Shown here: positions 5,049-64,000 of the stretch, piece after piece
How the letters are laid out: every line of letters begins with the position of its first letter
Position numbering within the stretch: the stretch's first letter is position 1
DNA from: Vermamoeba vermiformis
Lineage: Eukaryota
DNA length: 64,000 nt
Reading direction: 5' to 3'
NCBI GenBank assembly: GCA_045837725.1
Contig: JBEWZL010000306.1
Span: 248,001-312,000, forward strand
Position numbers and translations under genes: made by a program
The notes under the pieces: model-generated
What the model saw: only the letters and a program-made list of their open reading frames with translations
Told to the model about the DNA's origin: nothing
Databases searched by the model: none

Positions 5049-7992
5049 ATGGACACTTTAAGAGGTATAATTATTTTAACGATATAATCAAATATAATAT
5101 AATCATAATACATCCTTCTAGACCGAATTACGCCCATTCAACTCAATTAATTTTTCAAAAATTCAGATCTTGATAGTTTAATTTATAATTTGCTTTTAAA
5201 GGTATCGATACGATGCAAAAATATTTATGATAATTTATAGCTTTATTCGAAAACCTGATTGTAGTGGCATTCGATTCCACCCCGTGCGATGAAACCTCTT
5301 CGCCACTGGGCACTGAAATCACTGAAATGGCGTGGCTGACCTACGATATGGCTCTACATCAAGCAATTAATACGAAGCAGTTCTTCATTAAGCCAGATTA
5401 CGCACCGAAAGTGCTGGGCGAGAGACCGATCCTCAGATCCGCTTCTCCTTTGAAAGACGTCATTCAACAGGTATGTGTGGCCACTAATAGCTCTCATTCA
5501 AATATAACTATAACCAATCCGGTGCTATAAACTAATTTTTAAATGATTTTCATTACAAAATTACTAATGCTGGATCTACCCAGTTCGACAATTACATTAC
5601 CAGCTTAACGAAGGTTGGCAAGTCATATTGCATCATAACGGACGGCTTCTGGGAGCTAAAGCAAGGATTACGCGAAGAGAGCAGATCTAAAGGGATCAAG
5701 CTTGGCACTCATTTCAATAAGTTCTTCGACATCAAAATTGAATTTCTGAGAACTTATCCACGCGTACAAGGCATTGATATGTCATTGAACTCGATGATCA
5801 CAGGTACGATCTTAATACAATGTTTTCTGAAGTACTTTTATTGATTGACTCGATCAGCTCTCGGAATGCATCCGCTCGAAAGAAATTCAGCACTTGATGA
5901 TTGCAAGTCAATGGTCATATTAATTGAAAGGATGAATAAGGATGGTAAGCATCAAATTAACAAAAAATGTCGTTTTTTTGACACGTGTCCAGGTCACTCT
6001 TTCAATTCACCGGAGGTCCTGCCTGAGAGCTTTAATACGACCGTGCCACCAGCGCAATCTTTGCAAAGGCACCTATATTATATATTCCATATTGGGTCTC
6101 GGACTAAATGCTTTCTATTATAGTTCTACTGTTGTCAAGTTACGAGGTTTACCCTGGGAAGCTGACGAGACTGCATTCGAAGATTTTTTCAAAGTAATTA
6201 TATCGCGTCTATTGGTGTTAATATGACTAAAACTTGCTCTTTTCAGCAAGCGGAGCTAATGCCAGTTGACGCGCTCGTTGTGCTCAATCACCAAAATCGT
6301 CCATCAGGCCTCGGATTCGCTCGCTTTGCTACTGCCGATGAAGCACAACGCGCACTCGTGTGTCACAAACGATACATGGGCCACAGATTCATTGAAGTGT
6401 TCAGGTGTCTCGACGCTGATTACGATCGAATGGTGGCAAAAGGACACGGCTACAAACGCGTCGTTCACAAGCAAGCTGGCACGGGTGTTGCCGCTTCAGC
6501 AGGCACTATCATTGACACTAACCAGTTGATTGTCAATGCACCACAACAACAGCAACAAGAGTTTGTGGTCAAGTTACGTGGCTTGCCCTGGTCGAGTAGT
6601 GTGGCTGACATCCAAAGGTACGACATTAAACACAGCTCATACCATCAATATGCCTTTTATAATACCGAGTGAGTATTAATCTAACTGAATTTAGGTTTTT
6701 GGAGCCTCTGTTAATTCCAGCACAAGCTATTCACATTCAATTCACGGCCGATAACCGGCCTTCTGGCGAAGCATTTGTTGATCTGACGAGTGAAGAGCAA
6801 GTGCAATTGGCGCTCAAAAAGCATCGTGAGATGATGGGTCCAAGATATGTCGAAGTGTTTCGTAGCTCTCGTCGCGACACTGGCGCTGTACAACCGGCAG
6901 CTGTGCCTGTCACAACTCTTCCTGGCATTAGTACTGTGCAGCCACGCGCCATGCCGGCCACCGGCTTGATGACACCTGGCCCGGTCGGCGGATTGGTCGT
7001 TGCGAACACGAACCTTCCAGGCATCGCATTGACACCTGTCACAATGGTGCCTCCGCAGATGCACATTGGTGGTGTGCCAATGACAGCTCAACAAGGCCTC
7101 GTCATGGCATCGCACAACCCTTTTGCTGCAGGACCTGTAAAGGCTGAGACGGGCCAGCCAATGATGAACATAGCACCTTCTGTCGGCACTCGGTACGTTA
7201 AGTCAATAATGCTCCAGAAATGCTGTCGTGCTAATGTGCCACGTGACAGAAATTTTGTGATCAAAATGCGAGGTATGCCGTGGACAGCAACAGAACAAGA
7301 CATTGCTGCCTTCTTTGATCCGTACCGAGTCATTAGTGCCACGACACTCAGAGACAAGTTTGACCGTGCTACTGGTACGATTGAAACCACTTACCGGTGT
7401 ATCTTGTTCGCTAATTCGTGATTTGTACCACTCTTAGGTGAGGCTCTAGTCGAGTTTGAGAACGACGATGTGACAAACAAGGCCATGTCTAAGCACAAGG
7501 GCATGATGGGCACGCGTTACATCGAGTTGTTCCGCGTGTCACGTGCTGATTTGGCTAGTGCGAGCGGTCCTGTTGCACCGACTGGCGGTCCTGTTCCTAA
7601 GCGAGAGCGACCTGTTCAAGGCCCTAACATGAACAAAGGCTCTGGTGTAAGTGCATTATTGCCATATATAATCATATCAGTATAGTGACAATCACTGCAG
7701 GTCACGTTGAAGATGCGTGGGTTGCCGTATCATGCTACGGTTGATGATGTGGCGGAATTTTTCAAGGGTTACAAGTACGATCTATATTACTATACTATTT
7801 TAGTTGCTGGTGTATTAATTGCGATTTTAATTCAGTTTTGTTCGGGAGTCAATTCGGTTTGGCACGTGGAATGACAAACCGTCGGGCGAGGCGTGGGTGA
7901 CATTTACGACGAATGACGAGGCCAATAGTGCATTGGCTGCGAAACAACACGATTACATAGGCAATCGATACATCGACTTGTTTTTGGTTTAA
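5049..7992 (+). CDS. ESRP/Fusilli-like RNA-binding protein: DnaQ/DEDD exonuclease-like N-terminal domain plus four quasi-RRMs
   Basis: N-terminal LIVVAFD...EITEMAW...[25 protein letters not shown]...FFDIKIEF...GHSFNSPEV parallels the ESRP1 N-domain. Four [20 protein letters not shown]...G.A.V.F...RY(I/V)E(V/L)F qRRM motifs. About 11 exons. Confidence 0.85.
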
Positions 7993-8126
7993 ATCTCCGG
8001 ATGTAGTAAGTGAATTTCAGGATTAAAGCTCAAAATATTCGATTGATCACATTTGTTTTACACGCCGTTGTGCATTCATCAAATCATCTCGTTTAGTGCG
8101 GATCTGTTATTGCCGAGATTTATTAT

Positions 8127-10068
8127 TTACATTATTCGCCTCGACTTAGCGATCATCTGCATCCTCTTCTGGCTTTCTTTTCTGTCAGTTTGCGCAGTTG
8201 GCATAGTTTCCTTTGAAGGCGGTGGTACGTAGAAATCAGGAGCACGAAAAATCATGTCAGGATTAGCGTCCCAATCGTTCGTTTTGAAACAAGTGTTGTC
8301 GAGTTCTTGGTTGCATGCAGTTTGATTGAACACAGGGTGCAGACATTCAAGCAGCTTCTCGCCTTTTTCTTCATCGGTAAGTGTTTTGTTCAAATTGAAG
8401 CTACTGCGACACACGAACACACGCTTTTGATCGCTGAACTGGTTGAGTACTTGGCACACACCAGCATGTGTTTCACGTGCGTGAATGATGTGCACTGGGC
8501 CGTGCAAGATCATCGTTTGTTGGTGCGAGCGTTGCGAACCCCACTCTATGGTATCAGGTAGATCAATAATTGCCCAGGTTTATGTGTTATCTTGCTGTGC
8601 TTACCTTCTCCATCTCCCGGTGCGAATCTCAATGCATGAGTGCTGCGGGTACGACCAATTGTGACTTCTTCTTTGAGTTTTTGCATCGCTCCGTACAATC
8701 TGCCTTGATCGTCACCTGTCATGTCAGCGTCGAATTCATCGAACCACTGTGCCATCAGCTTTCTCGTTCTTTCGTTCCATTTCCATGCGTACACTCCACA
8801 ATCAGGAATGATCATGTCATGTGGCCAGTGTCCTGTAATCGTGAAATCGAACTCGTGTGAGTCCATGAACTCGAAGAACGACTCCATTGAGAGACAGCTC
8901 CACGAGTCTGCATCGACAAATAAGGAAATTCTTGCAGGTGCGAATGATGAGAAGATGACTCGTGTCGTCCATTGACGTTCGTTATTGAACATGAACTCTT
9001 TTCTGATACCAATTATACGATCAAATAATTCATCTTTGTCAACGAAGCTTCGATCAGAAGTGAAGAGTATCAATTTGACTTTCCCGCCTTTTGGATGATT
9101 TTTTCGGTAAGTTTTTGCTGAGGCAATCGCTTCTTTAAGCGCATTTTTCAGCCCCGATGGCTTTGGATTGTACGCGAAGAAGTTGATGCTGTATCCGTTC
9201 TTTGGAATATGCTTCGCGTACTGGATCTGAAGTGCCACATCGTCTCGATTGCCATAGTTGATCTGAGGAATGAAGCCACTGCAGAACTGTTCTGAACAAT
9301 TGGTGTTCAAGAAAGCGTTCGTTCTATTATACACATAGTGTTCGCTCCAAAGAGCCTTGGTCGAAGTCTTTGTGAACATTCTGCTGGCCAACCAGGCTGC
9401 TTCCCAGATGTCTTCCGAGTCCAATTCTCCAAAATGGACAAAATCGCACTGATTTAGCCTTTGATCGAATGCAAACTGTGCCAATGCTTCTTTGAGGTAA
9501 CCATTCGTATTCGGTTGGTTCGTACCATGCACCTACAAAAAAAAAGAACTCAATTTCGAAGCTTTAAAATTCGTAATTATTACGCTAAGTTGCGTCATAC
9601 ATCGTGGTTAAATGGAATATTTAAGCTTTGAGGGTTAAATCTTTAAATGAATATTAAAAAAAAAATTGTAGCGGATCAACTCGATAGGAACAACTTGTGA
9701 ACTCCTACCCCTGACCCTACTGCCTCTTCAGAATTGATTATAAATATTTCGTAATGAGATTGATTATGATCCTGGCTGTATTTGATCCATTCGTCAAGTA
9801 CCGCTGCTTGAAGTCCGATTAAACAGATAGTACGGGAGAGATTCGTATTATTATTGCTAACGAAGCCGTCAATAATGTCTTGAAGCAAATATTGTTTGAT
9901 TGGCTCTGGCTCGAACGCTGGTTTAGGAGGTTGCAACTCTTCTTCCGGATTGTCTTCGGTGGATCCTTCTTCAGATCTGAACCATTCTGGATGGCGATAG
10001 CCCAGCATAACCACAATGATGCATATTGAAGATAAGAAAAATATTATTTTTTTCTTCTTTGTGGTCAT
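8127..10068 (-). CDS. Type II membrane GT-A fold glycosyltransferase-like protein, copy A
   Basis: MTTKKKK followed by a single TM anchor; DxD-type motif LFVDADSW, DCGVYAW and GDDQGRL; multi-exon. Confidence 0.7.
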
Positions 10069-10392: not shown

Positions 10393-12571
10393 TTACATTA
10401 TTCGCCTCGACTCTGCAATCATCTGCATCCTCTTCTGGCTTTCTTTTCTAGCAGTTTGTGCTGTTTCCTTCGAAGGCGGTGGTACGTAGAAATCAGGAGC
10501 ACGAAAAATCATGTCAGGATTGGCTTCCCAATCGTTTGTGTCGAAACACGTGTTGTCGAGTTCTTGGTTGCATGCAGTTTGATTGAACACAGGGTGCAGA
10601 CATTCAAGCAGCTTCTGGCCTTTTTCTTCGTTGGTGAGTGTTTTGTTCAAATTGAAGCTGCTGCGACACACGAACACGCGCTTTCGATCGCTCAGTTGGT
10701 TGAGTACTTGACACGCACCAGCGTTCGTTTCACGGGCATGAATGATGTGCACTGGACCGTGCAAGATGTGCGTCTGTTGATGAGGACGTTCTGGACCCCA
10801 ACCTGACAATACATTAGTACTACTCAAACTCTCAGAAGAAAATGTTTGCAGTCTCGATCTGTTCGCGCGACCGGTGAATCTCTCGTCACTCGTAGTAAAG
10901 GTCACCCACGTGCCAAACCGAATTGACTCCCGTGAGGAAGAGAATCAAAATGGAACGCGGTTGTCTTGAGACTGATGAAGTGTAATGGTGCTTACTTTCT
11001 CCGTCTCCAGGTGCGAATCTCAGTGCATGAGTGCTGCGAGTACGACCAATCGTGACTTCTGCTTTGAGCTTTTGCATCGCTCCGTACAACCTGCCTTGAT
11101 CGTCGCCTTTCATATCAGCGCCGAACTCGTCAAACCACTGTGCCATCAGCTTTCTCGTTCTTTCGTTCCATTTCCATGCGTACACTCCACAGTCAGGGAT
11201 GACCATGTCATGGGGCCAATGTCCTGTAATCGTGAAATCAAACTCGTGTGAGTCCATGAACTCGAAGAACGACTCCATTGAGAGACAGCTCCACGAGTCA
11301 GCATCGACAAATAAGGAAATTCTTGCAGGTGCGAATGACGAGAAGATGACTCGTGTCGTCCATTGACGTTCGTTGTTGAACATAAATTCCTCTTTGATTC
11401 CGACAATACGATCAAAAAATCCATCGGTGTCGACGAAGTTTCGATCAGACGTGAAGAGCATCAATTTGACTTTCCCGCCTTTTGGATGATTTTTTCGGTA
11501 AGTTTTTGCCGAGGCGATTGCTTCTTTGAATGCGTTCTTGAGCTTCTCCGGCTTCGGATTATACGCGAAGAAGTTGATGCTGTATCCGTTCTTTGGAATA
11601 TGCTTCGCGTACTGGATCTGAAGTGCCACGTCATCGCGACTCTTAAAGTTGATCTGAGGAATGAAGCCACTGCAGTACTGCTCCAAACAGTGCGCATCTA
11701 CGAAGGCGTTCGTCTTATTATAGCTATATTGTTTGCTCCATAAAGCCTTCGTTGAACTCTTCGTGAACATTCTGCTGGCCAACCAGGCCGCTTCCCAGAT
11801 GTCGTCGGAACTAAGTTCTCCGAAATGCACAAAATCGCATTGATTTAGCTTTTGGTCGAATGCAAACTCTGCCAATGATTCTTTGATGTCACCATTCGTT
11901 ACGTGGACCTAAAAGTCAAAAAAGGATCAGTTTTCATTAGTTTGCGGTTGCAATTTTGCAGAGCGGAAATATTTGAATTATTAGGTATGAAAATTGAGTT
12001 ATAATAATATGATTAAGCGACAAAATAGTTCCGGAAATGGTAAAGGATGATCCGAAATAAAAGAAAACACAGGCAGGTCACACACATCCCCGGATGCCGG
12101 TGACACAAGTTTTACCTGGTATATGTGGGATTTATGTATATATCAAGCATTGATATGTTAATCTATGTGCTAGATGCGAATTGATGTCACAATTTGTGCG
12201 TAAAAAGAGAAATCAAAATTGTGGCATCCATCCGCATTTCCGTATTTTTAGTTATAACTTACCTCTTTTGATTTCATATCTAAGCCATCGACGGAGCCAA
12301 TAGCGAACACGTTAAATAGCGACTTGTTATTGCTGTTGACGTATTTAATCCATTCATCCACAATTGGTGTCTGGAGTCCAACTAAGCAAATATTGCCGTG
12401 ACTGTTATTAACAAATACATTAAATATCTCTTCTCGCACTAATGCTACGTCAAATGGTGCAGCATCCTCTCGTGGTGGGTCAAACCACGCAAGATAGCGG
12501 TAGTTCACCATAATAGCTATAATACATAACAAAGCCACTACGAAGACTAGCTTCTGCTTCTTTGTGGTCAT
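10393..12571 (-). CDS. Type II membrane GT-A fold glycosyltransferase-like protein, copy B (tandem paralog)
   Basis: Same motifs and same last intron position as copy A. Catalytic region nearly identical; N-terminal stem diverged. Confidence 0.7.
10882..10932 (-). repeat. Inverted copy of part of the last ESRP-like exon (7843-7920) inside an intron of glycosyltransferase copy B
   Basis: Reverse complement CGGGAGTCAATTCGGTTTGGCACGTGG GTGACCTTTACTACGAGTGACGAG matches the exon with a 27-nt internal deletion and 3 substitutions. Confidence 0.85.
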
Positions 12572-53810: not shown

Positions 53811-54965
53811 TTAGAAGCTAAGCATGTCCAAAGAGCGCTTGCCGTTCTGATCGCATTGCTTGTTTTGGAGATCGCAAGTGTAACCGTTAGGGCAGCAAGA
53901 TTGCTTGTCGCTGCAGCAGACGGCATTGGGGTAGGGGCAGCAGCCGTATGAGCCTGATTGCAATTGGCAGCAAGTGGAGCCGCTGTTGCATTCGCTACCG
54001 TCAGGGCAGTTCACGTCACGACCCTGCACCAAAATGTTAGATGTGATCTAAGATGTTCAGATCTAACAAGTAATTTGTGACCCATATGGCGTAGTTATAT
54101 TTGCCAAATTGGTAATTGATTTGCTATCGAGGGTTACGGAATTCAGATCCGGGTATGACACATACTTGGACTTGAACCAATGACAAAGCCTTGCCCTTGC
54201 GAGCGGATTGAACGCATTGCTTGTTGGTAAGGTCGCAAGTGTAGCCGTTAGGGCAGCAAGATTGCTTGTCACTGCAGCACACAGCGTTGGCGTACGGGCA
54301 GCAACCGTACTCACCGGATTGCAATTGGCAGCAAGTGTCAGCTGGAATTAAAGCATTAGATCTTTGAATATTGCTATTTGCACGTGTAATATAGCGATGA
54401 TGGAGGAGAGGGATCAACTTACTGCTAGGGCAAGAGCTGCCATCAGCACAGCTGACATCTCGGGCCTATAATGAAAAATAAATAACTGAACGATGCAACG
54501 TGCTTGTTAATGCGTGTTCCACGATTATTCTAATTTTTATAGTGCAGCTAAATTTTTCGTGCGAAAGTTCTCGATCAAGTTTGAAGAAGAGACATACTTC
54601 CAATTGAATTTCCTCTTTAGCTTGAGTATCCTCAGCTTTTTGAATGCATTGGCTCTTTTGAACATCACAAGTATAGCCGTTAGGGCAGCAAGAAGAGTGA
54701 TCACTGAAATTTGTTAATAATTTTCGTATTTTTCAAAGCAATTTAATTTACCTGCAGCAAACAGCTTGAGGGTAAGGGCAGCAACCATATTGACCATCGG
54801 CGAGTTCGCAGCCTATTTTATAAATACTTTAACGACCGCCGAAGATTTTTTTGATCAAATCCTCTTACAAGTTTGATCGCTCTCGCAGGTACCAGCAGGA
54901 CAACTGTCAGCAGTAACAATGGTAAAGACGGCAAGAGCCGCAACTAAAAAGAAGACAAACTTCAT
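53811..54965 (-). CDS. Secreted progranulin-like protein with three granulin modules
   Basis: Signal [19 protein letters not shown]; three C..C..TCC...GCCP.P/A.AVCC.D...CCP.GYTC......C 12-Cys modules. Confidence 0.92.
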
Positions 54966-55559: not shown

Positions 55560-58500
55560 ATGCGGCCCCTCTTCGTGCCCATTCTATTATACTTCGCCTT
55601 GTTACTCGCGCACCATGCAAATGGCGTTGCAATATGCGACCACGTCAAAAATATTGGTAAGTGAAAGATTATTCAATTCGCTTGCCAGTTAGAACTGCTG
55701 TTCCTTGATTCAATCCCGTAATAATATGACACATATAAATAGGTATTATTGGTAGTATCGATGGCTTTGGTGCAGCGTTTTCAAACGTGACTTGGCTTTC
55801 ATCTGCGTGCCAAGCGACATCCGATTTTAATTCGGGATGGATAAACGTCCCTGCGCAATATCCACTTGTCACAAAATCATCAGAACTCACAATTAATGAA
55901 TTGTTGGTGCGCAGATCTTTGAAGACACGAACGGATGCCAATAGTAATGCAGTCATTAACATCACGATAGAATTTCGCGTGACAACCAGTGGAGATAATG
56001 GCCTTAATTCAAAATCTCACGGATTCATAACAAAATCCCTCGCAGGTGCGGATTTGAATTTTTGAATTGTTCTGATTAATGACGGTTATTTTCAGGCATT
56101 CCCGTAAACGCAATTTCTTTTCAACCAATATCATGGCGTGGAATACTTTATTCCTCGTGTCAAGAAAACGACTTAGATTGCACACACGTTGTGGATCAGG
56201 ATCTTTTTGATGGCAATCAACCTTCAATTCTTCAACCCTCGACGCCCAGTGATTATCAATTCGATATTATTAAACTCGTGCGAGAGCGTATTTCTGACGT
56301 TAACCTACTGCTGGGACCTCTTGATGCAGCTCCTTCAGCAATGCATGGTTCGGTCCGCGGATGCTTCATGCCCAAAAAGAATCCGATGATTGCATCAGTA
56401 ATATATGGTACAGACAATGCTTTAGGTAAGTCTCAGACTTTATTCTCAGGAAAAAACCTCGTCTCATTTTCTTTTGTTTTGTGTAGGCAGATCGGCGTCA
56501 GCTTCATTTCGAGATTCGTGCCAAGGAACTGAGTGCGGCTCAATATTAGTATCTAGCATTCAAGACTTATTGAGCGAGGCTTCACAAGGCAAATGCCCTT
56601 CACTGAACAACATTCAAGAGTCGATCAGCTCTTCAGTGGATGCGGAAATAGCCATCGATAGTAGCAACAGTTCTATCCACGTGCGAAATTTGTTCGCACA
56701 GACAAGGGCTGTAGTTAGCTGCGGCGACTTGTTCTTTGGCATCGAAGTAACTGCTAGAGGCTCGTACCAGTCACCGTGGCCCGTGGACATCTTTTTGGCC
56801 GACACGAAGGCAATGGTAGCAATGATCAAAGCCATCAAGCTCAATTTAAACGGAAACATCTATGGCGCTGTCCAAGTCGACAATCAACTCTTCACAGTCG
56901 TGTCTGGTGATTTATTTTCGATTGGTCGCGGTGGTGCTTTGATACCCGACCGTGCCATCGATTCTACCGTGATCCAATCAGCCCTAACTCAAATCAAGCA
57001 AAAGATTTCAACTGAAGTCGACTTGGTGAACGATTTCATCGACGATTTGTTGCGAATGGGCGACATCACCGCACTAATTAACCGCTACAAGAGCACGGTA
57101 GCAGCACCTCGCTTGGTAGATTTCTTCCAGTGGCTGTTCAGGAACGAGCCCAGAGTCACTATTGTAGTCAGTGCTGATGGCAGTGAAATCACGCTCCTGT
57201 TTTCCATTGGTGAAAAGCTCAAGATTCCGTTCGACCATAACTTCATCACCGCTGCTAACGAGAAGTTTGATACTTTCGGTTCCGACATTCGATCGCAAAG
57301 TGTGGCTGCAAACGCCTTTGTCATACCTTCAATATCAGAGACAGATGCTGCTACACTCAACTGTCTTCTGCAAGCCTCGGTAACTCTTCAATTACTTGAC
57401 AACTCCACAAACGTACTGCGTGTCATCAACAGCACGATTGACTTCACTGGTGCTATTGACATTCGTGCCAAGTTCAGTACCTTGCTGCCTGGAATGTTCT
57501 CTTCGGCGAGCTTCATGCAGCTAATCGGTGGAGAGCCTTATATAGTAGCTGAGATTGGAGGTGGATTGAGCAGCGTCATTGGTTCACACGCAATTCACTT
57601 CAACGAGCTGTTCTTGGATTTGCCTTTCAACAACTCCAGAAACCTCATTTCGGCTGTCGAGAACATATTGGGAAAACTGGCGGAGAACCCTTGGACCATG
57701 AGCGCGCTTCAACCATTCACGACCAACTTTGGGTCAATTATGCCGAACACGAACTTTTACAACGGTCTATCGTGGCTTGCTTCCTTAGTTAAGGACCCAG
57801 AGGCAACTACAGTATCGGTGGCTCGCAAATGGATATCCCAAATTCAACAAATAACCGACAAAGTATCGAACCTGATTGTCTTCCCCAAAATTGAACCAGG
57901 CAGCAACCTGATGAAGCTGTCACTTCAAGTTCACGAACTAGCGAGCCTTTCAATCCCAAGCGATCGAACGCAATGGAAGTCACTTGGTACCGCGAGATTG
58001 TCTGTTCCAACACTTGTAAAGAAGACACTGGAGTCAGTAATGAACTTCGAGAACGTCGAATCTAGCTCGCTCAACGTGGGTGCCAAAGCATTTAGCAAGC
58101 TCAGTAACTGGGTCGTGCCCTTGAGACATCAGATGATCTCTGGTATTGCCACCGAGAGTTCGATCTCCGTTGACATCAATCTGCCAAGCTTCACGAATAT
58201 CAACTTGCACCTCAATCTCTTGCCTGGCCGAGGTGAAAAGAACATTCTCGTAGACATTTTTGGCGACAAATTGTTGGACACTGAACGCTATCCCGAATTC
58301 AAGCTATTGACGAACAACACGATTACCATCGACCCGTCCAACGTCTTGTCTTCAATCAAAGACGGTCTCATGCAGTTCGTTCCCTTGCTATATTCAGGTG
58401 CGCTCAACTTCCCGATTCCTCCGATGAAGGAGTCGTTGGGCTCGATGTACAGTGGTGTGAGTGGCCTGATCGAGGACGAAATCGTGCCTTGGTTGCTCTC

Positions 58501-61500
58501 AGCAATTGAAGACGATAATCTCTTCACGATTGAAGTGTGCATCAATGCACCTCAAGACTTGTCCTTTAACTTCACCATCAACGGCGTCAATCTTGAGCTT
58601 TGTCCATTTGACTTCACGAGCTTCAGCTCGCTACAAGACCTGAACACGGCGCTCACTCAAAATATCAAGAATTGTCGTTTGGACACCTTTATCATCCCAA
58701 AAATAACAAAGCAAATCAACGAAACGTGCGGTGAAATCAGTATGATGGCTGCCGTACGTGGTGCCATCAGAAGCCTTCAAGGTCTAATAGCAGGCGAGCA
58801 CCAAGTCCAATTCAACGCACCGCAAGCACCTTCGTTTGGCAGTTGGAAAGACTTGCTTTTTGTCCTCAGAACTGTTCTCAAGGCTCCGTGGCTAAGCATC
58901 GAAGAGACAACCGTACCTCTTGCAGAAGTTCAAGGACTGCTCCCTGTGACATTCCAAAAGGTCTTCAACGACTCCAAACCAGCTGTTTTTGTAGACGTCA
59001 GCATACCGCTCGGCAACAAGGAGAATGTCCTTGCCTCATTAGCTCCGACTTTAATCTCAGAAGACGGAGCGCTGGCCTTGAACATGCCCGACAAACTCCA
59101 CATCACGGCGGAGTTAACTTCAGCAATCCGCTGTCACCTTGGTGTTGTTTTCAACGTTCCTGGCACCAACGACATCTCGGCCTTCTCAGATCTTCAAGGA
59201 GAAGATGGCGTCACTCTACAATCAGTCATTGAAGCAGGCAACAATACATTTGACTTGCGCGTTCAAGCTCAGTACAGATCGATCAGTAGTCAATACTTGA
59301 TGGAGTATTCGAACACCATTGTGTTGACGCCTGGAGTTACCTTTGAAGAAAGTGTTACTCATGACATTCTCAGCCAAGTCAACGACACAATCAGAGACTT
59401 GCTTAACATTACTGTTGAACCGAGCAATGAAATGTTGGGTCTCACAGCTCAAATTCGTGTTGCCGTTGTTCGCAAGCAAGTGGATGAAGAGACGTGGATC
59501 TTGCCCGTTGAACTCTCAATTAGCAACTCAAGAGTACCTGGCCTGTCAAACTTTGTCAATCACCCATCGAGCGCTCATGTAATCGTCTCTGGCTTGTCTG
59601 TGAATGGTTCACTGAATGCTGCAGCGTCCTTTGATACCAAAGTGCACGGTGTATTAGGCATTCTTAACTTGCGAGACTCAGACATTGAAGGCAATGTCTC
59701 AGCGTCTGTTGGCGTGGCACAAATGCACCCGTATACAACATTGTCTGCCGTTGGCTCGGCCTTGGTCAACAACGAGCTGTTTGATCGTATACTTCAAGCT
59801 GACGTGCAACTTCACTCCAACATGAGCATCTTTGGCTACAGTTTATCCGAGATTGAGAACTTGAATCTCTCTGAGCTACCGACGATTGGCTTCTTAGTAG
59901 ATCAAGCCATCTCATTTGCCAACACGACAGTTCTTAGCCACATCAACCAGGAGCTGTCAAAGTGGCGCACTCATGTTATGACTGCTCGTGAAGACGTCAA
60001 ACAAGCGTTCGAGTCTCTTTCCCGATTGAATCAAGACTCACTCTGCGATTGGACAAGCAAGATCTACGACGCTGCGGAAACAATGGGCGACAAAACTTTA
60101 ACATTGCCATTTACTTCGGCAAGTCTGGAAGACGTAATCACACCCGGCCTCTTGGAAGTAATATCGAAGCTCAAGACCGTAGTTTGTGAAGCTAAGACTG
60201 GTCTGACCATGCAGCAATTCTGCGATGCAATGAACCGACTTTGGAACCAAGAGATTTGCCGCAATGCAGTCTTGACCTATTCGTCATTCAAGTTCGAGCT
60301 TGAATTGGAGCGTTATAACCGCGAGTTCACCTCATCGGTCAGCGTTGATGTTGGCAAGATCTTTGGCAGCAAACACGCAGCTATGACGGGTGCTACTGCC
60401 CTAACTGTGCTTGGAAACTTCAGCTTCTATCTTCCTTTGGAGGCTCTGTTTTCATCAGAAGGCGTTTCCCTGCGCATTGGAGACGACTACCATTTTGAAG
60501 TCGATGTTGCCGTAGACGGATTCGGAACCGCTCGTGCCTACATCGGACCTTTAGCTCTCACACTCGCTGACCTCCGTGCCTACATCGGATCGCCAGCAAA
60601 GCTCGTAGCTCAAAAGGGTTCCCTTGCATTGAGCGGAGAAGCTGCCTTCTCGGCCGTTGTCAATCTTCCTAATTCTCAGTGTCGATTGAGCATTGCAGTG
60701 CCCGACATCAGTCGCCCCTTCTCAGACCCCAGCACTATCATCACTGAATGCCGCGATGGCTTCTTAAAACTCCTCGAAGACGCTCTTCAGAGCAGTCCTT
60801 TGATCAACTATTTCAGCTCTCCCTCTCGCTTATTAGCTCAAATGGAGGAAGGTCTGGATCAGATGTTGGACTCCATCTTTACGACCACAGGATCGCTCAA
60901 CTATCCGCTCATTGGTCGCTTATTTGAAGAACTAATTAGAAGTGATGTCCTGTCGTTAGTTGGATCAGGAGAAGGTCAAGAAATCATTCGAAGATTGGCT
61001 AATATGACAAGCACAATCTTGCAGTCAGACCTTAATCCTGCCGTGATCGATCAAGTCACACTGCAAGGCTTTACGGAGATCTTGTGCCTTGTCTACAAGC
61101 CTAAACACTGCCCGACCCCTCCCCAACTCGGTGCTGGTCTTGAGCTCCGTTGGCCTCTTCAGCTCGCTCGTTCAGTGAGCAAACCAATTGCCGGCATCAA
61201 TTTTGGCTTAGGCGCACATGGATTTGCTGCGCTGACACTCGAATGCTCTGCACAGCTTCAAGTCACTTTTGACGTGAACTTCACTTTGATCTACAGCTCG
61301 TCACACGGCATCCAAGTGCTCATCAACAACGATCAAATTCTCATCTCTGCCAATGCCAACCTTGATCTGTCCGCGTGTCACTTGAAGGGCAAAATTGGTT
61401 TCCTGGGTGCTGACCTTGGAACAGATGGCAACAGTGGCGTTCGAGCTTCATTCACGATCACAAACACTGGTGGCAGTCTGCGTCCAGATCTCAACTTTGC

Positions 61501-64000
61501 CGCTGAAATCACCGGTGCACTTGAGCTTGGTCTTGCAGGGTCCCTGAAGTCTGGCCAAAGCGGAGTTCAAAATGCAGTGCCTCATTGGCAAGCACGAGCA
61601 CGATTCTATTGGCCATACTCACTGGAGTCCAACACGGTCCTCCCACCTGTGTTCACGTTGACCGAGCTCAACATGTGCACTGGCACAGTCCTCGCTGATA
61701 TGGTCCGAGAAATCATTTCTGCTGCGGATCCGATCTTCAAGCCTTTCAACAACGTTCTTGGTCGCGATGGAATTCTCTTGAGACGAATTGAACCCACAAG
61801 ATACATCTTTGGCAGACCTCTGACACTTGTTGAACTTCTCCGCATTGTCGCGCGAGAGTTTTGCAGTAGTTGCGCTTTTGATGGAGTATTTGAATGCATT
61901 GAAGCGTTCTTGTCCATCAACGAGGTCTTCCAATCCGTGCAAAGATTCAAAGATTTGGGAGTGAACGGCTGTCAGGTCACGCAAGCCGTACAAAGCTTCA
62001 ACCTCAACTTCCAATCGCCAAAGCTTGACCCAGAGTTGTTCGGTCCATTGCCAGATGGTTCTCTCTTTGCACTGGACCCGTCCAAATTGCCTCTTGACAT
62101 TAACGAGATTCGCCAATCCTACAGTCGAATCACCGTTGAAGGCAAGTTCGGTGTCCGCTTCCCATTGGTCCAGAACATCCCGCAGAAGGTCATCAGCCTC
62201 TTGCTTGGCCAAGATATTCGTCTGGTAGAATTTGTCATTCCTCCCATGACTATTGCTGCTGGAGTTAATTGGCCTATTCCCGTGTGGCCCGTACCACTTG
62301 TCACGCTCAACATTGGAATCAGCGCTTCAATTCGTCTAGACATTAATCGCGTCATATTCACATCGAAGGGAATAAGACACTTGATCGAGACTGGCTCGCC
62401 TGGCTCACTCATTAGCTCACTAGCAATTCCAACAGTTCGAGATGATGGCTCACCCCTCTGGCAACTTCAAGGCTCTGTCAGACTCACAGGTGGCGTGACA
62501 GTTAGCATCTTTGTAGTCAAAGGCTCTGCTTATGTCTTCCTTCAATTCGACGCAATGGCGCGCATTCCAGACCTTCACAGAGGATTTGTTGCATTTGACG
62601 AACTCGCATCTGCCTTCAAACTCGGTGGTTTAGGCGTGCTCCAGCGACGCCTGCAGTTGGCTGCCGGCTTTGGCTTGAGACTTCAAGCATGCATCCCACT
62701 CGTCTTCAAGACCGTTTGCCGTAACATCGTTAGAATCGAGCGTAGTGCAATTATTTGGGCAGCGGAATCTTCCGAATCACGTATCAACCCGCGCTTCACG
62801 GACAACGCTGGATCTCTCAATTTGGACGCAATTGAACCGAACTCTAAGGTTGTGGTGTATGACAATCTCCTTGAAAGCACGCGCAGAACGACTCTCATTC
62901 CTGCTGATAACACGTCAAGATCTGTTGACACCAGCGCAGCCAATCCTGTCATGTACAGTGGCAGTCCAAGAGCGCTCGAAATGGAAGTTCGATACGTTAG
63001 GCAACTCGTGCACTTGCCTCAAAACGCCTTTTTGAGATTTGTTCAATCAGCCAACAACGATGCCCGACGATTTATCGTTCGTCCAAACGGCATTTCTTCT
63101 GACAGTAGCAGCATGGGTGTTGCCATCAACGAAGGCTGTTCTAAGCTACTTATGGAATCCCCCAAGGCCTTTTCGACCGTGTCGTTCTCTGGTCTCCCGT
63201 GCAGCACACAAGTCAAGTCGTTGTCAACAGTCAATGTTGCACTTGATGGAGACGTCAGTCAATACCAATCAAGATCGCTCGTTATTGAAGACGGAGCCAG
63301 AGATATTACGTCTAGAATTCAAGACACTGTGTATGAATTCTCAGCTTCAAGCATCAAGACAGTTAATGGCTTGGATTTGACATTTGCAACCGACGGATCG
63401 GTGCCTTCTATCACAGCGTTCGGTCACTTCACAATGAACTCTACTTTCTTCATCAAAGATTCGCCTCCAAATAGATCCCTGACGGTTGTCGGTGGCTCAG
63501 GCAACAATATTTTTGACATTCCAGACGTATCAACCCTGCGCGGATTAGTCACGCTTCGTGGCGGAACTTCACACGTCAATTACTTGGACCTCGATATCTT
63601 AGCCTCGACTGCTGGCCTCAACGTTGTTACTGGCCCTTCGTCGTTAGTCTATCAACAAGAAAACACCATCTTATGGGAGAATATCAAGAGTCGCAAGTTC
63701 AACATCGATGCCAAGGCTGGAACTTCAACGAGTTTCACGTTGTTGCGAACGGAGGACCATTCAACTGTAGAGGTCGTTGCCAAGGCTGAAGCAGGCAGTG
63801 ACGTTTCTCAATACATTACTGGCTGCAGTGGCTCATCTGAGCTCCGCGTTCAACTCGAAAATGATGGCAATCACGTTGTTTACATTGGCAATAGCGACGA
63901 GATTAGCGACTTCGCTTGCACTTTGCGAATCACAGGAGGCAACGGACCGACTCAAGTTGACACTGTTGTCATTCAAGCCTCTGATGACAAGCGCCACTTG
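55560..64000 (+). CDS. Giant secreted/surface protein (>2,700 aa, 3'-truncated), bacterial giant-adhesin-like
   Basis: ATG 55560 with signal peptide MRPLFVPILLYFALLLAHHANG. Introns at about 55657-55692, 55718-55755, 56046-56095 and 56426-56486. One frame then appears open from 56487 to the window end, which explains its absence from the ORF track. Confidence 0.85.

Follow-up and report, generated by a model that had tools for sequence, protein, structure and literature searches.

The end of a 64,000-nucleotide stretch of DNA from Vermamoeba vermiformis (Eukaryota; contig JBEWZL010000306.1 of assembly GCA_045837725.1, positions 248,001 to 312,000 of the forward strand; termed the window hereafter) is occupied by a giant gene on the plus strand, which starts at position 55560 and continues beyond the window. 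On balance, we favour the reading that this gene is expressed and codes for a giant glycoprotein of the secretory pathway, with a core of bacterial origin gained in an old transfer, which would serve as a membrane-anchored ectodomain in adhesion or sensing. The core of the protein resembles a module of giant bacterial RTX and beta-helix proteins, and this resemblance is one of true homology, extending over about one third of the visible protein.

Structure of the giant gene

The frame starting at position 56426 (protein P0001; residue n of this long frame lies at window position 56426+3(n-1)) stays open on the plus strand for 2,525 codons up to the window end. It is by far the longest open reading frame (ORF) of the region, the next longest stop-free frame in the upstream part of the window coding for 482 amino acids. 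Introns were located by enumerating the GT..AG pairs that leave the frame open, giving the following gene model:

55560, plus strand: start codon ATG, with the N-terminus MRPLFVPILLYFALLLAHHANG
55560..55656, plus strand: exon 1, with the start codon and the signal-peptide-like N-terminus (from the sequence, the open joined coding sequence (CDS) and the very similar N-terminus encoded on metagenome contig L081)
55657..55742, plus strand: intron 1, 86 nt, GTAAGT...AG (from frame enumeration and relatives aligned across the junction; no read support)
55743..56045, plus strand: exon 2 (from frame enumeration, the open CDS and alignment with relatives)
56046..56095, plus strand: intron 2, 50 nt, GTGCGG...CAG (the sole frame-keeping donor and acceptor pair in the searched range, with relatives aligning across it; no read support)
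56096..56425, plus strand: exon 3 (from frame enumeration, the open CDS and alignment with relatives)
56426..56486, plus strand: intron 3, 61 nt, GTAAGT...TAG (from frame enumeration and one spliced contig of sequencing run X1)
56487..64000, plus strand: exon 4, 7,514 nt, open to the window end, with the gene continuing beyond (from the stop-free frame; the database protein P0002 extends 327 residues further)

When joined, the four exons form a CDS of 8,244 nt, equal to 2,748 codons with zero stops. A second possible in-frame acceptor for intron 1 occurs at 55775. Over its first 300 residues, the spliced model can be aligned to 10 relatives at their N-termini, each time in one stretch that spans all three junctions, as for model residues 23-293 and residues 33-338 of P0007. 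The N-terminus MRPLFVPILLYFALLLAHHANG has the form of a putative signal peptide, with a charged start, 14 hydrophobic residues and small residues before the likely cut, as judged by reading the sequence and not by a predictor. The original prediction, made from the sequence alone, had proposed a hidden giant frame with a signal peptide and 5' introns, which is borne out by the 2,748 stop-free codons and the signal-peptide-like start. The 7.5 kb exon which it saw running open to the window end corresponds to exon 4, and the eight peptide strings it quoted are all encoded where it had placed them (60896, 61196, 61691, 61811, 62153, 62273, 63485 and 63536). Its count of four 5' introns was one too high, as three GT-AG introns were found. 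Of the introns which it had suggested checking against RNA, intron 3 is seen spliced in one contig of run X1, and introns 1 and 2 are placed by frame enumeration and homology.

Expression and genomic fit

The spliced contig of run X1 covers window positions 56221-56426, followed by 18 letters corresponding to 56488-56505, with one difference and at a depth of 2.5. Other contigs 95-100% alike to the gene are present in two other runs, while two raw RNA runs labelled with the same species, X3 and X5, yielded 2 and 0 reads, too few to test expression. A related strain is represented in run X1, its big exon being 95-99% alike with many mostly synonymous-looking differences, and it contains a 3-nt insertion (ACA) after window position 62576. 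This in-frame insertion and the mostly synonymous-looking changes are as expected of a gene under constraint. The guanine and cytosine (GC) content of the coding sequence is 48.3%, with a value of 0.52 at third codon positions (GC3), and both fall inside the range of neighbouring exons (GC3 0.34-0.61 in six other exons of the window), indicating that the gene is at home in this genome and that any transfer is old. The gene is of eukaryotic nature, as demonstrated by its introns, its intron-bearing neighbours and its matching composition, and it is intact and probably expressed.

That the frame might instead be dead or foreign, whether as a pseudogene, as bacterial contamination fused to a eukaryotic contig or as a frame open by chance, is highly improbable. 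The visibility of splicing in a single low-depth contig would favour this explanation, as would the RNA runs with 2 and 0 reads, which are themselves no test. Against it stand the 2,748 stop-free codons, the 5' spliceosomal introns backed by homology as well as by the spliced contig, the similarity in composition to the neighbouring exons, and a frame that stays open in the 99% identical copy P0002. Furthermore, the closest bacterial protein among 1.84 billion cluster representatives reaches an E-value of only ~5e-7, compared to 1e-159 for the eukaryote-like relatives, a label that refers here and below to likeness over the whole length, cysteine content and the absence of RTX repeats and not to organism names.

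A family of giant eukaryote-like proteins

An exhaustive phmmer search of the same representatives with residues 1401-2525 of the long frame retrieved 154 proteins at E<=1e-3, 95 at E<=1e-10 and 64 at E<=1e-30. P0002, which is 99% identical to the window protein, stops at the end of its own contig, before any membrane-helix cluster, and the identity of the other relatives to the window protein does not exceed ~37%. About 30 relatives are giants of 2,500-5,500 amino acids that align over long-frame residues ~30-2525, with E-values down to 1e-273 in a local search. These alignments place the window protein in an unannotated family whose members measure ~3,700-5,500 residues.

No Pfam family was matched by the 2,525-residue long frame, even at E<=1, nor at E<=0.001 by 15 relatives without RTX repeats, save for a sub-threshold EF-hand match in P0005. 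A second Pfam scan of eight relatives at E<=5 returned only chance-level rows far under the curated cut-offs (best E 0.016), and NCBIfam models gave only sub-threshold matches on nine proteins, caused by RTX repeats. P0003 matched nothing among the PDB sequences at E<=1. The ESM Atlas provided no usable match for the membrane part of P0106 and, for the module described below, three best clusters of cyanobacterial hypothetical proteins at 0.84-0.88, which is under the trust level of the tool. No relative of the window module or of the bacterial core was found in the viral contigs searched, and a word-based search with residues 1-1210 recovered the near-identical P0002 alone, the method being too insensitive for the family. 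In the literature searched, neither the eukaryotic family nor the bacterial module is described, and no eukaryotic relative of the giant RTX proteins is mentioned.

In 22 of 34 relatives, our own hydropathy script detected five to nine hydrophobic peaks, most often seven, within the C-terminal ~450 residues, and the same peaks recur in two shorter pieces. The script also revealed a hydrophobic N-terminal start in many of the relatives beginning with methionine. As the relatives end in a cluster of membrane helices, the window protein is probably anchored and not simply secreted. The description of the protein as secreted in the original prediction holds as regards the signal-peptide-like start, but probably not as regards simple secretion. 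One full-length relative can be read as DNA, on the 14.2-kb metagenome contig L081 (1-14219; GC 37.6%). Preceded by an A-rich leader and lying 44 nt in from the contig end, its CDS opens with MRPSTILLLLYICLIASVSG, which closely resembles the start in the window. The contig may represent cDNA or an intron-less gene. Two frame changes in L081 (~1865 and ~8200) were considered as introns and rejected, as a canonical donor is lacking and the profile positions are almost all present; the changes probably reflect indels, and the sequence is continuous across them in protein P0013, recorded from another copy.

A module shared with bacterial giants

Four regions can be delimited in the part of the protein encoded by the long frame:

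56487..60052, plus strand: N-terminal ectodomain region, long-frame ~21-1209, confined to the eukaryote-like family (alignable to the giant relatives; no Pfam family and no significant profile match to the bacterial proteins or the module)
60053..62881, plus strand: module of giant bacterial RTX and beta-helix proteins, long-frame 1210-2152 (from hhalign, hidden Markov model (HMM) matches and an AlphaFold2 model)
62567..62602, plus strand: degenerate remnant of an EF-hand-type calcium loop, PDLHRGFVAFDE (from comparison of the loop pattern across alignment rows)
62996..64000, plus strand: predicted beta-solenoid region, long-frame 2191-2525, with two family-conserved RTX-like glycine motifs, VVGGSGNNIF... 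and ...LRGG (from AlphaFold2, structural matches and the alignment consensus)

When the alignment of the eukaryote-like proteins was compared by hhalign to a bacterial alignment built on an ORF of Stieleria mannarensis (L029), long-frame residues 1210-2152 matched residues 1255-2213 of this ORF over 900 columns, with a probability of 99.9% and an E-value of 3.3e-32. An HMM of 62 eukaryote-like proteins matched 53 of 80 bacterial ORFs with up to 191 bits (E 5e-59), collinearly and between model positions ~1070/1200 and 2150, and a sub-HMM of positions 1540-2190 matched all 80 bacterial loci. The weak tail of the phmmer search includes proteins rich in RTX nonapeptides and nearly free of cysteine (P0115, P0127, P0004 and others), which match the window protein collinearly at long-frame residues 1556-1697, 1743-1810 and 1900-2072. 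When compared to the bacterial N-terminal, module and C-terminal parts and to the module itself, long-frame residues 1-1205 and 2161-2525 gave no significant match (E 0.11-0.7).

The original prediction had pointed to a likeness to very large RTX and calcium-binding proteins of planctomycetes, cyanobacteria and actinobacteria. This likeness reflects real homology, with Pirellulaceae, Saccharothrix and Alkalinema all among the hosts of the module. Four of the five segments it had quoted fall within the 940-residue stretch matching bacteria, and the fifth lies in the beta-solenoid with the RTX blocks as best structural matches, where it constitutes the window copy of the two RTX-like motifs. Its view of a bacterial-type protein applies to the middle module and does not extend to residues 1-1205 and 2161-2525, while the name adhesin is an interpretation only, for the eukaryotic and the bacterial proteins alike.

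The bacterial loci derive from a scan of one genome each of 185,579 prokaryote species with an alignment of three RTX-bearing cores (A2), in which 248 stretches fitted two peptide patterns and 110 were confirmed; the best 80 of the 110 were used in the comparisons. The confirmed hosts come from at least nine phyla. They include Planctomycetota (Pirellulaceae, Novipirellula, Rubripirellula, Stieleria and others), Verrucomicrobiota, Gamma-, Beta- and Alphaproteobacteria (Pseudomonadota), Actinomycetota (Saccharothrix, Acidimicrobiales and Mycobacteriales), Cyanobacteriota (Alkalinema), Fibrobacterota, Nitrospirota, Acidobacteriota and others, with no archaeal locus among the 80 best. The encoded proteins are themselves giants, 61 of the 80 ORFs exceeding 3,000 amino acids, many of them truncated where the loci end, and at least ten RTX-type motifs occur in 71 of the 80. 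In nine bacterial giants analysed with Pfam, annotation was confined to the C-terminal parts: six contain RTX repeats, two of these with additional FG-GAP domains and one of the latter with cadherin-like and Big domains, while the remaining three contain a right-handed beta-helix/NosD region and dockerin. One N-terminal module is hence combined with two C-terminal types, beta-helix/dockerin (L061, L079 and L028) and RTX (L029, L030, L039, L048, L068 and L077), and it looks like a common base with exchangeable heads. Neither Pfam nor NCBIfam holds a model for the module, bacterial or eukaryotic.

The bacterial N-termini repeat the first half of their own module several times (hhalign probability 97.5%, E 5e-12). 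Such first-half repeats are seen between residues ~84-1192 and 1255-1850 of the L029 ORF (hhalign probability 88-97.5%) and as five tandem units in L080, and are not seen in the eukaryote-like N-terminus. Among 34 ORFs flanking 17 of the 80 loci, none belonged to the type I secretion families, the neighbours being sulfatases, regulators and further RTX ORFs. In three loci (L018, L019 and L020, ~6900-8500 in each) from metagenome-assembled genomes (MAGs) labelled as Burkholderiales, Acidobacteria and Lysobacteraceae, the module is identical or nearly so, with end branches of 0-0.004, reflecting either a very recent transfer of the giant gene or mis-binned contigs.

The bacterial and eukaryote-like modules differ in their calcium loop and in their cysteines. 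An EF-hand-type loop of the form D-x-[DN]-x-[DN]-G-x-h-x3-E near the module end is intact in 42 of 64 bacterial rows, as opposed to five of 55 eukaryote-like rows, and it is also the only place at which the bacterial core profile matched PDB sequences (NCS-1, E 2e-4). In the window protein this loop is lost, with PDLHRGFVAFDE in its place. By contrast, the module part of the eukaryote-like proteins contains a median of 10 cysteines (range 4-22), compared to a median of 0 (range 0-10) in bacteria, and 15 cysteine columns are conserved in at least 70% of the eukaryote-like rows, in agreement with the suggestion of added cysteines in the original prediction. We infer that the gain of cysteines and the loss of the loop fit a shift from calcium-driven extracellular folding to disulfide-stabilised folding in the endoplasmic reticulum (ER).

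Predicted structure

AlphaFold2, run with an alignment of 59 rows, modelled long-frame residues 1540-2190 with a mean predicted local distance difference test (pLDDT) score of 82.6 and a predicted template modelling (pTM) score of 0.72. In the model, helices connect two domains (model residues 34-212 and 393-576), each built of ten or eleven long antiparallel strands. A Foldseek search with this fold produced one match at E<=0.001, with a meaningless TM-score of 0.11-0.14. As the module fold has no clear solved counterpart, it gives no function.

The region that follows, long-frame residues 2191-2525, was modelled from a 26-row alignment as an all-beta solenoid with strands every 9-11 residues (pLDDT 94.9, pTM 0.91). 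When this model was compared to 48,161 chains, the top three matches were RTX blocks of the Bordetella adenylate cyclase toxin (PDB 7rah, 6sus and 7usl), with Z-scores of 10.5 (206 residues, root-mean-square deviation (rmsd) 5.2), 10.1 (171 residues, rmsd 3.8) and 9.8, the next match scoring 8.3; Foldseek returned nothing at E<=0.001. The family consensus in the solenoid contains two RTX-like motifs, GGxxxDxF...GGxGxN. The predicted order of a module followed by an RTX-type solenoid is the same as in most of the bacterial relatives, the solenoid part of this correspondence being one of fold and not of sequence.

Evolutionary origin of the module

A FastTree phylogeny was built from 118 module sequences over 544 columns, with 54 eukaryote-like and 64 bacterial rows and with P0002 left out as a near-copy. 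The eukaryote-like and bacterial rows are parted by one branch with a support of 100 and a length of ~1.2 changes per column, the window sequence is sister to P0016, and the bacterial part of the tree does not follow taxonomy. The single long branch between the groups makes one old transfer likely, its direction being undecided by an unrooted tree. Of the alternatives in the original prediction, horizontal acquisition or ancient sharing, the module phylogeny thus recovers the single split between the eukaryote-like and bacterial sequences and does not settle the choice or the direction. The internal repeats of the bacterial proteins were considered as an outgroup and judged impracticable, since just ten ORFs provide paralogous stretches, of 250-310 residues each, and the eukaryote-like proteins are barely detected by the bacterial first-half HMM. 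Hints of a direction from bacteria to eukaryotes, and no more than hints, are given by the wide bacterial spread of the module, its internal repeats and bacterial partner domains, the decay of the calcium loop, the RTX-like solenoid, the one clean split in the tree and the gain of cysteines.

It appears rather unlikely that the module moved in the opposite direction, from a eukaryote to bacteria, or that it is an ancient inheritance common to both. With one split in an unrooted tree the root could lie anywhere, and the disregard of the bacterial tree for taxonomy, together with the near-identical modules in MAGs labelled Acidobacteria, Lysobacteraceae and Burkholderiales, suggests that the module spreads easily once it is in bacteria. 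On the other hand, the 110 confirmed prokaryote stretches represent at least nine phyla, the module stands there in typically bacterial contexts (RTX, dockerin and NosD-type beta-helix) and is internally repeated, and its calcium loop is the rule in bacteria and a scattered remnant in the eukaryote-like clade; no archaeal locus is present among the 80 best.

Under the favoured reading of a bacterial origin, the module, probably together with the RTX-type solenoid, would have been acquired from bacteria in one old transfer and fused to a eukaryotic signal peptide and a new N-terminal region of ~1,400 residues. A C-terminal bundle of about seven membrane helices, as seen in the relatives, would have been added, and disulfides would have replaced calcium as the stabiliser, which would suit folding in the ER rather than folding after type I secretion.

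A number of points weigh against this reading of an expressed, membrane-anchored glycoprotein with a transferred core. Expression is supported by one low-depth contig from run X1, the RNA label of which is a guess. The membrane anchor lies beyond the window and is known from the relatives alone, by means of the hydropathy script, and the eukaryotic nature of the relatives, other than the window gene itself, is inferred. L081 encodes the whole N-terminal region without introns. As regards a glycoprotein, the 24 N-x-S/T sequons compare to ~25 expected, so that no enrichment is apparent. The best match of the module fold in VIA-align reached a Z-score of 7.9, within the noise range of the tool, with barrels, the TamB taco, lipovitellin and small soluble barrels tied, and sequence comparison did not link the solenoid to RTX proteins, with no Pfam match at E<=1 and an hhalign E-value of 0.32 against the bacterial C-terminal parts. 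In the phylogeny, each group forms one side of a branch in an unrooted tree, which does not show the direction and timing of the transfer, and FastTree is prone to long-branch effects. The two groups were also gathered by different searches, so that intermediates could be missed.

Possible function and similarity to known systems

The product of the gene would be a long, rigid ectodomain on the plasma membrane, by which the cell would adhere to or sense surfaces, prey or other cells. The function in adhesion or sensing as such is put forward tentatively, on account of the architecture and of the adhesion-type partner domains of the bacterial relatives. A different function is suggested by the long-stranded beta-sheets, which might act on membranes or lipids through pore formation, lipid binding or lipid transfer of the TamB, TULIP or lipovitellin type. 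The weak matches of the module, namely outer-membrane barrels, autotransporter translocators, the TamB beta-taco, lipovitellin and P47, point this way, and many bacterial RTX proteins are membrane-active toxins, according to the family review PMC3034196. We regard such a role as decidedly unlikely, since all of these matches have Z<=7.9 or a TM-score of ~0.1, which is noise by the tools' own rating, the bacterial relatives contain adhesion-type C-terminal domains (FG-GAP, cadherin-like, Big and dockerin), and the relatives of the window protein possess membrane helices of their own.

The window protein shares the same collinear module of ~900-940 residues with the bacterial giants of Stieleria mannarensis (L029), Novipirellula herctigrandis (L002), Saccharothrix sp. 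(L039), Alkalinema sp. (L077) and Halioglobus sp. (L030). Both are giant, and in both the module occupies a position ~1,200-2,200 residues from the N-terminus, with a beta-solenoid after it that is of RTX or beta-helix type in bacteria and has an RTX-like predicted fold in the window protein. The bacterial proteins are nearly free of cysteine, keep the EF-hand-type loop and contain tens of canonical RTX nonapeptides as well as the first-half repeats. The window protein, in contrast, has a putative eukaryotic signal peptide, introns and an unrelated N-terminal region of 1,200-1,400 residues, with membrane helices present in its relatives. RTX exoproteins (PF00353, HemolysinCabind) are exported by a type I system and bear an uncleaved secretion signal at the C-terminus; the window protein has a signal-peptide-like N-terminus and belongs to a eukaryote, its C-terminus lies outside the window, and its relatives end in membrane helices. 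With the RTX family defined as in PMC3034196, its tandem GGxGxDxUx repeats were not detected in the window protein, which contains two RTX-like motifs only and, by the family's own sequence criterion, is not a member. The RTX blocks of the adenylate cyclase toxin are the best-matching fold for its solenoid, with strands every 9-11 residues and two GGxGx[DN] motifs. The solenoid differs from them in lacking most of the aspartate ligands, and a Z-score of 10 among solenoids is no proof of common descent.

A precedent for the proposed history exists in the teneurins, eukaryotic surface receptors reported to derive from bacterial YD-repeat/Tc-toxin-like proteins. In their case, a single uptake of a large bacterial surface or secreted protein was followed by the addition of a eukaryotic membrane anchor and by use at the cell surface (PMC3278476, PMC6425310 and PMC13018210). 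Teneurins share neither fold nor sequence with the proteins described here. They occur in animals and choanoflagellates as type II proteins with a single membrane pass, while the anchor seen in the relatives of the window protein is a C-terminal multi-helix bundle, preceded at the N-terminus by a putative signal peptide. None of the teneurin features (YD/RHS shell, NHL propeller and Tox-GHH) was detected, Pfam having found no family on the window protein. The combination of a signal peptide, an ectodomain of thousands of residues and about seven C-terminal helices in the relatives is also shared with the adhesion G-protein-coupled receptors and polycystin-1-like receptors. However, Pfam detected none of the 7tm, GPS/GAIN, REJ, PLAT and PKD domains in the 15 relatives without RTX repeats (E<=0.001), nor at E<=5 in P0003, P0010, P0013, P0015, P0008, P0038, P0060 and P0035. 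With considerable reservation, we propose that these proteins may form an undescribed and widespread superfamily of eukaryotic surface receptors of 4,000-5,500 residues, in which a bacterial core of module and RTX-type beta-roll was domesticated behind a signal peptide, disulfides took the place of calcium, and a seven-helix domain of no known family completes the protein.

Other genes of the window

Two adjacent long exons on the minus strand, at 8549-9532 and 10889-11908, code for closely similar products, both with ...FAFDQ.LNQCDFVHFGEL...DIWEAAWLASRMFTK..., and a short exon whose hydrophobic start resembles a type II anchor lies ahead of each. The pair has the look of a tandem duplication. 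A cysteine-rich frame (54127-54465, minus strand), located immediately upstream of the giant gene and on the opposite strand, contains runs such as CC...GCCP, which may resemble granulin-type modules.

Significance

For more than 2,700 codons of the window gene and for a family of over 150 sequence clusters, neither Pfam nor NCBIfam offers a match and the core lacks a clear solved fold, which makes them a large blind spot of annotation in both eukaryotes and bacteria. The bacterial module, present in at least nine phyla, gains its first very distant relatives, which helps to set its domain borders and conserved positions. If the transfer took place as proposed, it would represent a natural experiment in which a calcium-dependent, type-I-secreted bacterial protein was refitted to the eukaryotic secretory pathway, and a new example, beside the teneurins, of bacterial surface proteins turned into eukaryotic receptors. 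Should these proteins form a superfamily of surface receptors, they would provide a second and independent teneurin-like case in which a bacterial weapon or adhesin became a eukaryotic receptor.

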